Assembly: GCF_000091665.1 (NCBI RefSeq)
Contig: NC_000909.1
Span: forward strand, 790,712-822,711
DNA from: Methanocaldococcus jannaschii DSM 2661
GTDB taxonomy: Archaea; AGJL01; Methanococci; Methanococcales; Methanocaldococcaceae
Reading direction: 5' to 3'
Length of the DNA: 32,000 bases
The position numbers and the translations under genes are program-made. This document shows, piece after piece, positions 14,690 to 31,911 of this stretch; position 1 is the stretch's first letter; the number at the start of each line of letters is the position of its first letter. The notes below the pieces were generated by a model that ran no database searches, was not told the DNA's origin, and saw nothing but the letters and a program-made list of their open reading frames with translations.

Positions 14690-15616
14690 ATGGATATCTT
14701 ACCATATTTAACTAAAATAATACTTCTTTCATCTATTGGAATTACTATTGCAAGTATTATAGTGGAAACCAATCTAATAAGCAAAATTAAAAAAATAACA
14801 AAGCCAATTTGTTTAATTTCTAACCTTCCAGAAGAGTGTGTAGTGTCTTTATTAGGAAATTTTATAAATCCAACTGTTGGAAAGTCAATGTTATCCGGTT
14901 TTTATAAAGAAAATAAGGTTAATGAAAAAGAAGTTATAGTAACAACTATAATTAGCCCTTTACCCACAATTTTAGGAGAGAGTGTTTTTAGAGTTCAATT
15001 GCCATTAGCTGTTGTTATTTTAGGCTATAAGTTGGGACTTATCTATGTCTCTCTTAACGTTATCTCTGGATTTTTACAGGCTTTAATTGGAATTTTGTAT
15101 GCAAATATATTTTTTGAACGAAGGCAGATAAATATTGATAACAACAACAATGAAAAAATCGTATTTAATAGAGAAGTTATAATTAAAGGCTTTAAAAAAT
15201 CATTAAAAATCTTAAAAAAAGTTATTCCAATGATTGTTATCTTTACCCTATTAATAAACTTCTTGATAAAACTTGGTTTAATGGATGTTGTTAAAGGACT
15301 GTTTAGCCCGATATTTAGAATTCTTGATTTGCCAGGTGAGGCAATAACTGTTTTGATAGCAAATCTTGCCCATTTTTCTGCTGGATATACCACAGTTGAT
15401 ATTTTGATAAAAAATGGTGTTTTAAATGAGAAACAGGCATTAATAGTTTTATTGATTGGAAATATTATCAGTGTTACCATGATTTATTTAAAGCATTCTA
15501 TTGGAACATACATATCTTTATTTGGAAGGTTTGGTTTAAAGTTGGCGGTAATAAATTATACAATAAGTGTTATGATTAAGATATTGCTGATTTTATTGCT
15601 TATCGCCTTTTTTTAA
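14690..15616 (+). CDS. Multipass membrane protein, paralog of 4313-5266 (possible Gate-domain transporter)
   Basis: The 308-aa ORF is hydrophobic and starts 21 nt after the cfbC stop, so it is likely co-transcribed. It shares a motif with the paralog (see 4313-5266). Confidence 0.55.
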   Translation: MDILPYLTKIILLSSIGITIASIIVETNLISKIKKITKPICLISNLPEECVVSLLGNFINPTVGKSMLSGFYKENKVNEKEVIVTTIISPLPTILGESVFRVQLPLAVVILGYKLGLIYVSLNVISGFLQALIGILYANIFFERRQINIDNNNNEKIVFNREVIIKGFKKSLKILKKVIPMIVIFTLLINFLIKLGLMDVVKGLFSPIFRILDLPGEAITVLIANLAHFSAGYTTVDILIKNGVLNEKQALIVLLIGNIISVTMIYLKHSIGTYISLFGRFGLKLAVINYTISVMIKILLILLLIAFF

Positions 15617-15626
15617 TATTTTAAAA

Positions 15627-15682
15627 TTATTCTTCAAATATAAACTTAAACACTCCTTTCTGAACGTGCAATCTATTCTCTG
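15627..15682 (-). repeat. Orphan diverged copy of the argF 3' end (would encode [17 protein letters not shown])
   Basis: 42 of 48 nt are identical to 15812-15859. All five internal differences fall on synonymous third-codon positions of the argF frame. Confidence 0.85.
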
Positions 15683-15704
15683 TGAAACTTTTAGTAAAAG
15701 TTAA

Positions 15705-15793
15705 ACAAAAACCCGAAAAGTTTTTGTAGCCCGAAGCTAACGCTTCGGTTTCATCAAAACAGGATACACTGCCTCGCTACGCTCGGCAGTGCC
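15705..15793 (-). ncRNA. Candidate small structured RNA or inserted element (GC-rich hairpin cluster). The strand assignment is tentative.
   Basis: There are four consecutive hairpins: 15686-15702, 15707-15725, 15731-15748 (7-bp GC-rich stem with a tetraloop) and 15767-15791 (7-bp stem). On the minus strand a TTTATATT lies about 25 nt upstream (15813-15820), and a T-run (CGGGTTTTTGTTT) follows the last GC-rich hairpins. Confidence 0.35.
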
Positions 15794-15800
15794 TCTTAGA

Positions 15801-16718
15801 TTACTTTCTCTCAAATATAAACTTAAATACTCCCTTCTGAACATGTAACCTATTCTCAGCCTCATCATAGACAACTGAATGCTCTCCGTCAATAACATCG
15901 TCTGTTATCTCATATCCTCTATTTGCTGGGAGGCAGTGCATAACTATAACATCATCTTTAGCATACTCTAAGAGCTTGCTATTAATTTGGAATGGTGGAA
16001 AGATTTTTAAAACCTCTTCTTTGTCTTTATCATCACCCATACTAATCCATACGTCGGTGTATAATACATCAGCATCTTCAGCTGCCTCTATTGGGTCGTT
16101 GGTTAATGTTAAAGAACCTTCTCCATAATTATTAATAATCTCCTTAGCTTTTAAGACAACTTTAGCATTAGGTTCATAACCTTTTGGTGTTCCCACATAA
16201 GTATCCATTCCTACTAAAGCAGAGCCTAAAATTAAAGAATTACAGACGTTATTTCCATCTCCTAAATAAGCTATTTTTAAACCTTTGAATTTGCCTTTAT
16301 ACTCTTTTATAGTCATCAAATCAGCCAATATTTGGCATGGGTGAGCTAAATCGCTTAAAGCATTTATAACAGGAACTGAGGAATATTTAGCCATCTCCTC
16401 TAAATGTCTATGCTTATAGACCCTTGCCACTATAGTATCAACATATCTGCCCATAACCTTTGCAGTATCTTTTATTGACTCTTTCTTTCCTAAATGTATC
16501 TCATTCTGGTTCATTATTAGTGGATGCCCTCCCAACTCATAAACTGCAATATCAAAACTCATTCTTGTTCTTGTTGAGGGTTTTTCAAATAAAATCGCTA
16601 CACTCTTCCCTTCTAAGATTTTTTCATGTTTTCTTCTATTTTTTTTGAAGTATATTCCATATTCAATAATTTTTAGTACATCTTCTCTACTCAACACATC
16701 CAAATCTAAGAGATGCAT
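15801..16718 (-). CDS. argF: Ornithine carbamoyltransferase
   Basis: It has the carbamoyl-phosphate motif [12 protein letters not shown], plus HPCQILADL and MHCLPA. The SD (GGTGAT) is the reverse complement of 16723-16728. Confidence 0.92.
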
Positions 16719-31715: not shown

Positions 31716-31911
31716 TCAGGTGATATGAGATGAAGGTCTTTGAGTTTTTAAAGGGTAAGAGGGGGGCCATGGGTATAGGAACTTTGATAATCTTCATAGC
31801 CATGGTCTTAGTCGCTGCAGTAGCAGCAGCAGTCTTAATTAACACAAGTGGATTCCTCCAACAAAAAGCAATGGCTACAGGTAAAGAAAGCACCGAACAA
31901 GTTGCAAGTGG
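31716..31911 (+). repeat. Second copy of the 196-bp archaellin 5' block
   Basis: See 30980-31175. A second shared 35-bp block links 31234-31268 to 31974-31998+. Confidence 0.9.

Follow-up and report, generated by a model that had tools for sequence, protein, structure and literature searches.

Genomic islands and proviruses that move by means of an integrase enter the 3′ ends of genes and supply a replacement end, and integrase-less remnants that are still flanked by att sites are also known, for example the cis-mobilizable elements of Streptococcus. A precedent of a different kind comes from RNA-gene screens: Klein, Misulovin and Eddy are said to have used local G+C content, in 2002, to screen for the G+C-rich non-coding RNA genes of AT-rich hyperthermophiles. 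Both bear on the locus described here, the 3′ end of argF (ornithine carbamoyltransferase) in Methanocaldococcus jannaschii DSM 2661, where the last codons of the gene occur a second time downstream of its stop codon and a short, hairpin-forming insert separates the two copies. The locus lies in a stretch of 32,000 nucleotides from contig NC_000909.1 (positions 790,712 to 822,711 of the forward strand), which we refer to as the window and to which coordinates below apply unless another locus is named.

The closest precedent is insertion with long target duplication, for which Nobusato et al. (in 2000) are reportedly to be named alongside Furuta et al. Restriction–modification (R–M) units inserted in this way have R and M genes within an insert of <20 kb, flanking repeats of >30 bp and no other mobility genes (Furuta, Abe and Kobayashi 2010, PMC2853133). 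Start or stop codons often lie within the repeats, a Type I system of Haemophilus influenzae has a 46-bp repeat that overlaps the 3′ end of a gene, and no archaeal system survived the 2010 screen (PMC2853133).

In the argF locus we distinguish an in-gene copy of the repeat (copy A), an orphan copy (copy B) and the insert between them. Our reading, to which we give a probability of roughly 0.6, is that a genomic island once inserted at the argF 3′ end and that its remnant is the 177-bp unit made up of the copy A tail, the 118-nt insert and copy B. The evidence includes the following: (i) the site is filled in some lineages and empty in others; (ii) the insert is homologous to the left end of a Type I R–M island found at the same site in metagenome-assembled genomes (MAGs) and (iii) the two copies correspond to different argF alleles of relatives. 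The argF insertion is most likely an archaeal, degenerate case of an already known type of event and not a new RNA gene, and an odd feature of a model archaeal genome would thereby find its explanation in ordinary genome archaeology.

Anatomy of the duplicated argF end

An original prediction, made from the letters of the window alone, held that the last argF codons are doubled 177 bp apart, and this is readily recovered. Positions 15635–15682 and 15812–15859 are identical at 42 of 48 nucleotides, and a repeat finder returns 15634–15680 against 15811–15857 (89% identity, spacing 177). The internal mismatches were said to be exclusively synonymous and at third codon positions; the five (15651, 15657, 15666, 15669 and 15672) agree with this, as does an edge mismatch at 15681. 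Five random mismatches would all fall at third codon positions with a probability of (1/3)^5 = 0.004. The orphan can be read as a 17-codon argF end, the gene itself closing with ...FIFERK and a stop codon, and because the spacing of 177 equals 59 codons the copies are in frame. Just two copies of the 50-mer are present within the 32-kb window, and the list of open reading frames (ORFs) places no gene in the insert. The features are as follows, with L numbers designating loci and contigs of relatives:

15801..16718, minus strand: argF, ornithine carbamoyltransferase, 305 aa, intact (ORF list)
15811..15860, minus strand: copy A, the in-gene copy of the 50-nt repeat; TTACAT/AAG allele, closest to the alleles of L100, L097 and L089
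15801..15810, minus strand: copy A tail, G AGA AAG TAA (..E-R-K-stop), which travels with the insert
15683..15800, minus strand: insert, 118–119 nt, collinear with the first ~115 nt after argF in the MAGs L087 and L100
15792–15800, minus strand: conserved leader UCUAAGAGG ahead of H1
15767..15791, minus strand: hairpin H1, CACUGCC-GA-GC-GUA-GC-GA-GGCAGUG, −17 kcal/mol
15749..15765, minus strand: linker AUCCUGUUUUGAUGAAA, the best-conserved stretch of the insert across all six carriers
15731–15748: hairpin HA, CCGAAGC-TAAC-GCTTCGG, −12.8 kcal/mol
15705–15727, minus strand: hairpin HB, −6.8 kcal/mol
15700..15747, minus strand: 48-nt segment with HA, HB and several T-runs
15686..15702, minus strand: hairpin H2, AACUUUU-ACU-AAAAGUU, weak in M. 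jannaschii
15634..15683, minus strand: copy B, the orphan copy of the repeat; TTGCAC/AAA allele, closest to those of FS406-22 and L088
15627..15633, minus strand: copy B tail, A GAA TAA (..E-E-stop)
14690..15616, plus strand: convergent neighbour, a gene for a Gate-domain membrane protein (ORF list)

The argF product of the window is 100% identical to M. jannaschii ornithine carbamoyltransferase. The DNA that follows the copy B tail is similar to that at the native end of argF in M. bathoardescens (..E-Q-stop, TAATTTTG), and the stop codons of argF and the convergent Gate-domain gene are 184 bp apart in M. jannaschii.

Filled and empty sites among relatives

A comparison with sister strains had been proposed along with the original prediction, and it reveals empty-site alleles in FS406-22 (L001) and M. 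bathoardescens (L005), each with a single 50-mer and with 5–8 bp between argF and the same convergent gene. Filled sites, in which copy A, a stop codon, a homologous insert and copy B follow one another, are present in M. vulcanius (L004), the MAG L026 and the metagenomic contigs L092, L097 and L098. The insert of these short filled forms measures 71–82 nt, which corresponds to the M. jannaschii insert minus the 48-nt block at 15700–15747; this segment is kept in M. jannaschii and the island-bearing MAGs, and its deletion from L026, L092/L097/L098 and M. vulcanius falls between a pair of AAC triplets.

The downstream gene differs from one filled lineage to the next, and for each there is an empty-site relative that agrees exactly with its copy B in tail and downstream DNA (L044 and L090 for L026; L088, L089 and L091 for L092/L097). 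For L091 and L092 the argF genes are 98.8% identical, their last 219 nt are identical and the downstream DNA is 99% identical. Divergence within the insert is small, at 4 of 71 positions between M. jannaschii and L026 and 7 of 70 between M. jannaschii and L097, against 28–29% at argF third codon positions in the same pairs, a pattern that would reflect either recent exchange between lineages or constraint.

The scan of genome contigs covered uncultured or recently sequenced Methanocaldococcus, as distinct from M. jannaschii, M. vulcanius, M. fervens, FS406-22, M. bathoardescens, M. lauensis and their plasmids. Four Logan contigs with an identical ArgF (L103–L106) stop exactly 31 nt past the argF stop codon, as is expected of a k = 31 assembly graph that breaks on meeting a repeat; the longer contigs L101, L102 and L107–L109 all have the 184-bp spacer of the window. 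We also note a small DUF8108_N gene that separates argF from the Gate-domain gene in L097 (6087–6640), L098 and L091 (416–973). This gene adjoins argF in M. vulcanius and is absent from M. jannaschii, FS406-22 and M. bathoardescens, and its presence or absence is another indel at the argF junction.

A restriction–modification island at the same site

In the MAGs L087 (=L006) and L100, argF has a module-type tail and is followed by the leader and then by hsdM. The tail in L100, GAGAAAGTAA, is identical to that of M. jannaschii. After it, both MAGs continue with TCTAAGGGGCACTGC (H1 being deleted), ATCCTGTTTTGATGAAAC, HA, a diverged HB and non-coding DNA up to hsdM. The L100 contig ends just past hsdM, and L087 goes on with small toxin–antitoxin genes (DUF2283, UPF0175 and DUF3368) and reaches hsdS at the contig end. 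L024, a second contig of the MAG to which L087 belongs, has a nucleotidyltransferase fragment, then hsdR and a gene for an M48/M56-like peptidase; an orphan copy B follows after 40 nt, and beyond it lie the same 310-aa and 123-aa genes that are found downstream in M. vulcanius. The contigs L087 and L024 are 94% identical to, and collinear with, a Type I cassette located elsewhere in M. jannaschii itself (L094), and this collinearity implies a gap of ~0.6 kb between them and a total of ~10 kb for the island. No integrase or transposase domain was detected among the 10 largest island ORFs scanned, the island being split over two contigs, and no integrase is present among the called neighbours of any argF locus looked at.

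The M. jannaschii insert matches the island leader exactly over 34 nt and with 82% identity over 79 nt. A global alignment of M. jannaschii with L100 shows, in order, copy A (3 mismatches in 50 nt), identical tails, a 20-nt gap that corresponds to H1, missing in the MAG, and the 34 identical nucleotides. Beyond these the homology runs through HB to about AACTTTT..TAAA..GTTT, at which point M. jannaschii joins copy B and the MAG goes on towards hsdM. Because the insert aligns with the leader, the 119 bp would represent the left end of the island fused to the displaced end of the gene. At the far junction, copy B of L024 reaches 5–8 nt further left (ATGAG, followed at the boundary by GCAGAG) than the copy of the four short forms, all of which share the junction AAAAGTTTC(G/A) followed by (C/A)(A/G)GAGAAT.

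The same Type I cassette (hsdM, hsdS, small toxin–antitoxin genes, hsdR and the M48/M56-like peptidase gene) occurs at three loci in three genomes: L094 5508–13390 in M. jannaschii, L111 7561–13417 in M. fervens, and L087 11146–16073 together with L024 1–4302 in the MAG. HsdR is 87–94% identical among the three, and the borders of the cassette lie tight against the neighbouring genes. No flanking repeats surround the cassette at the M. jannaschii and M. fervens loci, and long ones are found at the argF locus only.

In the M. lauensis lineage (L086 6916–8260; L045 1–170), downstream of argF lie a different G+C-rich palindrome cluster and then a CRISPR array with ~13 repeats. The occupant of the argF downstream end is, depending on the lineage, a Type I R–M system with toxin–antitoxin genes, a CRISPR array or a scar, and in Methanocaldococcus this position looks like a hot spot for defence DNA.

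Origin of the two copies

Two questions to address are (i) why the copies differ by synonymous changes and (ii) which of them is foreign to M. jannaschii. For the first, the 50-nt end varies by synonymous changes only among the real argF alleles of relatives. A copy drawn from any other allele will therefore also differ synonymously, which accounts for the key observation behind the original prediction. The TTACAT and TTGCAC alleles both serve as functional argF ends, even with the same downstream DNA (L089 versus L088).

For the second question, M. jannaschii copy B is 2/50 nt away from FS406-22, with which it shares the AAA Lys codon, and copy A is 5/50 away from FS406-22 and 3/50 from L100, L097 and L089. 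The match to the island-bearing MAG L100 runs from the in-gene copy through its E-R-K-stop tail into the first nucleotides of the insert. It is likely that the in-gene copy of M. jannaschii was imported and that the orphan is the resident argF end. The original prediction had an element replace the 3′ end of the gene. What stands is that the end was apparently replaced by incoming DNA from another allele, at a site that is filled or empty depending on the lineage; the polarity, with the orphan as the foreign copy, is probably reversed in M. jannaschii.

The tails extend this comparison. Those of copy A are homologous in every filled site, and the copy A tail of L092/L097 is identical to the natural argF tail of FS406-22, so that copy A would close with a real argF end of outside origin. 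What appears to be resident is the copy B tail, together with the DNA beyond it. FS406-22 itself has an empty site (L001 4907–4930), and its argF end, GAGAGAGACTAA (E-R-D-stop), equals the insert-linked copy A tail of L092/L097/L098. Either lineages like FS406-22 may be the source of the travelling end, or FS406-22 may have lost the insert by a deletion other than recombination between copies A and B.

The polarity found in M. jannaschii does not extend to every carrier. The TTGCAC allele of the M. jannaschii group is found in the left half of copy B of M. vulcanius and L092/L097, whose copy A has the local allele, as in the nearest empty-site relative. The idea that the orphan is the native copy in every lineage was dropped, as the left half of the orphan looks foreign in these carriers. 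Their pattern, which involves few sites, fits a short form that was born in a lineage like M. jannaschii and moved with the left half of the orphan. Windowed identity was also used to look for a foreign recombination tract inside M. jannaschii argF; the relatives are 85–93% identical and no clear boundary emerged.

A proposed history of the scar

The order of events and the recombination mechanism that we infer are these. Foreign DNA would have arrived with the last ~50 nt of argF from another Methanocaldococcus lineage, the E-R-K-stop tail and a hairpin-rich non-coding leader; its cargo, in the sole full-length version seen, would have been ~10 kb of Type I R–M and toxin–antitoxin genes. Recombination with the resident gene within the conserved 50-nt end of argF would have let the incoming copy complete the gene and left the resident end as the downstream orphan. 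In a second step, an internal deletion that dropped the cargo would have joined approximately nucleotide 115 of the leader to a point 5–8 nt inside the orphan, giving the M. jannaschii form. A further deletion of 48 nt would have produced the shorter form of several other lineages, which may then have been moved in or out by ordinary homologous recombination in argF and the orphan copy.

Support for such an order comes from the progressive loss at the right end of the insert, from the L087/L100 leader to M. jannaschii and on to L026, L097 and M. vulcanius (minus 48 nt); the loss of H1 in the L087/L100 MAGs is separate from these. The simplest history would thus be an island insertion with flanking repeats of ~55 bp, an internal deletion that left 119 bp and then the 48-nt deletion. 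We further infer that the insert is now most likely no more than an argF 3′ untranslated region (3′ UTR) and terminator in front of the convergent gene, with two stable hairpins and several T-runs.

A number of points weigh against this history. The full island is a composite of two contigs belonging to one MAG, to which a second MAG adds a left junction; no single molecule shows it whole. At its other loci the R–M cassette lacks the ~115-nt leader, so that leader and copy B could predate the cargo. If copies A and B recombined within their last, identical 26 nt, the product would be an ‘empty’ allele like that of L091, and gain and loss are to that extent inseparable. The polarity of the copies in M. 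jannaschii hangs on 2 versus 5 differences in 50 nt. Compensatory changes in two of the hairpins, described below, hint that the insert is not mere junk. Finally, the copy counts are those of the window and the fetched loci, as opposed to the rest of the M. jannaschii genome or its extrachromosomal elements.

Could the short unit itself be mobile?

An alternative that we consider unlikely is that the tail, the hairpin module and the left half of copy B (129–177 bp) form a miniature non-autonomous integrative cassette that is itself mobile. A recombinase encoded elsewhere, on a plasmid, a virus or the chromosome, would insert and excise it at an att core within the last 26 nt of argF, the hairpins would be binding sites for the recombinase or an accessory protein, and the R–M island would be a later passenger. 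Repeats of this kind classically stem from integrative elements that substitute an end of their own for the 3′ end of the target gene. The boundaries are in part what a cassette should have: the right one (..ATATTTGA) is the same in every filled site, and four lineages whose downstream genes differ share the left boundary of copy B. The former, however, is where argF conservation ends anyway, and the latter differs in the MAG contig L024.

A fixed crossover region predicts that differences between copies A and B lie to one side of an identical core, and they are indeed all left of an identical run of 17–26 nt. This core comprises 17 nt at the gene-distal end of the repeat in M. jannaschii and 26 nt in L092/L097, and is at least as long in the other carriers. 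L092 and L091 differ by a clean 129-bp indel in otherwise 99% identical DNA, and the insert is far less diverged than neutral sites, both of which a mobile unit would explain. On the other hand, the nested deletions are more simply taken as the decay of a longer insert, and a circle of 129–177 bp is very small for recombination.

The circular form would be expected to have the junction ..AAAAGTTTC + 50-mer + GAGAAAGTAATCTAAGAGG. No integrase lies in or beside any copy, and no att-like copy turned up in viral contigs, phage records or plasmid records: IMG/VR gave 0 hits for the att copy, scans of viral contigs returned nothing or chance 17-mers only, and BLAST of the insert, with and without the repeats, found no match in plasmid and phage collections, outside which Methanocaldococcus extrachromosomal elements may lie. 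If the cassette carried a synonymous argF end of its own, its insertion would be harmless to the gene. The fuller proposal, of a self-contained 129–177-bp mobile cassette with a synonymous argF end and a selected RNA or DNA module that hops between lineages and serves as a landing pad for defence islands, is more doubtful again.

Composition and folding of the insert

The insert has a G+C content of 42%, with a peak of 51% in 80 nt, in a window of 30.6%. It was originally described as the sole non-coding G+C-rich patch of the window, and this holds for 80-nt patches of ≥46% G+C, all others of which lie within an ORF. One of the latter, at 31747–31878, is inside an ORF that runs off the end of the window; the N-terminus of that ORF looks archaellin-like, which marks the patch as coding DNA and not as a second candidate RNA. 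A coding reading of the insert itself was rejected, as two stop codons follow the argF frame and the spacing in M. vulcanius is not a multiple of 3.

On either strand, four successive hairpins form in a 129-nt stretch (z = −3.7 and −3.8). The two hairpins named originally, H1 and HA, are where they were said to be, each single-copy in the window with 0 expected by chance. Four back-to-back hairpins had been described, and four do fold in series; only H1 (−17 kcal/mol) and HA (−12.8 kcal/mol, both at 37°C) are G+C-rich and strong, and HB (−6.8 kcal/mol) and H2 (−2 kcal/mol) are A+U-rich. In the forms with the 48-nt deletion H2 becomes a perfect 9-bp stem. Runs of T4–T5 are found at 15700–15727 on the argF-sense strand. 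With a MITE- or REP-like dispersed hairpin repeat in mind, copies were counted: the window holds one copy of the insert and no further copies of its hairpins, and in 739 kb of fetched loci the insert is found behind argF only.

Is the insert an RNA gene?

It is also conceivable, though in our estimation rather improbable, that the argF-sense strand of the insert specifies a functional structured RNA, which would be a small RNA with its own promoter or a selected 3′-UTR element. An element of the latter kind might stabilize argF mRNA, terminate transcription before the convergent gene or insulate a downstream hsdM, and would have spread by selection. The folding z-score of −3.7, two strong hairpins (H1 and HA) in a genome of 31% G+C, the T-runs after HB and a conservation of the insert above neutral expectation are what such an RNA would lead one to expect. 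So is the pattern of substitutions in the six-sequence alignment, where, for the four hairpins, four pairs are changed on both sides and 90% of cells are paired, as compared with 32–49% in slid controls; wobble pairs are allowed on the argF-sense strand only. H1 has a compensatory change from C-G to U-A in L097 (CAUUGCC/GGCAAUG) and a U.G pair in L026, and in HB two C-G pairs of M. jannaschii are U-A in the MAGs, with wobbles in addition.

These six sequences are, however, few and related by recent descent, and no hairpin is common to all carriers: L087/L100 lack H1, of which M. vulcanius has a degenerate form, and L026, L097 and M. vulcanius have lost HA and HB. Neither HB nor H2 is strong enough to hold at 85°C, and the sister species with empty sites manage without the insert. 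The Rfam scan that had been suggested, run on the window with Rfam 15 (including the Hgc, C/D and H/ACA sRNAs), gave no match at the gathering score and no family even at E < 10, the one hit below E = 10 being a chance match with E = 1.7. ARAGORN detects no tRNA or tmRNA, and a scan for bacterial-type terminators found none; the sigma-70 scan is irrelevant for an archaeon. A reading of UGAUGA in the conserved linker as part of a C/D box was discarded, there being no D box at a suitable distance. In the literature found, MJ0881 is not mentioned and no transcript data are given for the locus.

The TATA-like motif TTTATATT that had been proposed as a promoter in the argF codons is present, but it is forced by the K-F-I-F codons found in every argF and in the orphan. 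The motif TTTATATW is common in the window (26 observed versus 21 expected), so its presence here is no evidence for a promoter. The separate RNA gene of 85–90 nt in the original prediction thus finds no backing from Rfam, from the tRNA and tmRNA searches or from a hairpin shared by all carriers. The compensatory changes would fit a role at the RNA level, most simply that of an argF 3′ UTR.

The last alternative, in which the argF end was duplicated locally in tandem as a neutral event and the spacer is G+C-rich by chance, would account for copies that are direct, near each other and in frame, but it is highly improbable and, as the original prediction had argued in setting aside a decaying local duplication, is contradicted by the comparative data: the mismatches are all synonymous and at third positions (P about 0.004), both alleles are real argF ends in other lineages, the site is polymorphic for the filled and empty states, the spacer is homologous to same-site DNA in five other lineages and to the left end of the island, and the tails of copies A and B are unrelated.

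Comparison with known systems

Like the G+C-rich RNA genes of hyperthermophiles (the Hgc RNAs in Rfam), the argF insert is a local G+C peak with stable hairpins in a genome of 31% G+C. Unlike them, it has no Rfam model, averages 42% G+C and is absent from sister species, its hairpins are lost piecemeal and a gene-end duplication flanks it. For G+C-based RNA-gene screens in AT-rich hyperthermophiles the locus is a warning that remnants of island ends can mimic RNA genes.

The similarity to integrase-mediated islands lies in the synonymous, element-borne 3′ end, the displaced end on the far side and the identical core in both copies. The differences are that no integrase is near the copies and no attP-bearing plasmid or virus was found, that the target is a protein-coding gene and not a tRNA gene, and that the unit is only 129–177 bp.

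Insertion with long target duplication of R–M units offers the closest parallel. The repeat here is 47–50 bp and single-copy in the empty sites of FS406-22 and M. bathoardescens, it spans the stop codon, and the same-site cargo in relatives is a Type I R–M system in an island of ~10 kb with no integrase or transposase seen. Among the bacterial examples, the Type I system of H. influenzae with its 46-bp repeat is a close match. As far as it has been sequenced, the island of the MAGs appears to have the features by which that class is defined. The R and M genes at the argF site are found in the MAGs only (hsdM and hsdS in L087, hsdM in L100 and hsdR in L024) and not in the window; since the window insert has no R–M genes and keeps only ~119 bp of the left end, it would be a remnant and not a strict member of the class. 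The copies are, moreover, different alleles with different tails, which argues for a juxtaposition of donor and resident ends and not, as in long target duplication, for copying in place. The locus also departs from the bacterial cases in its archaeal host and in the recurrence of the M. jannaschii scar in several lineages. The 2010 screen yielded bacterial examples only, and the argF site apparently provides the first gene-end-duplicating insertion in an archaeon that can be tied to restriction–modification.

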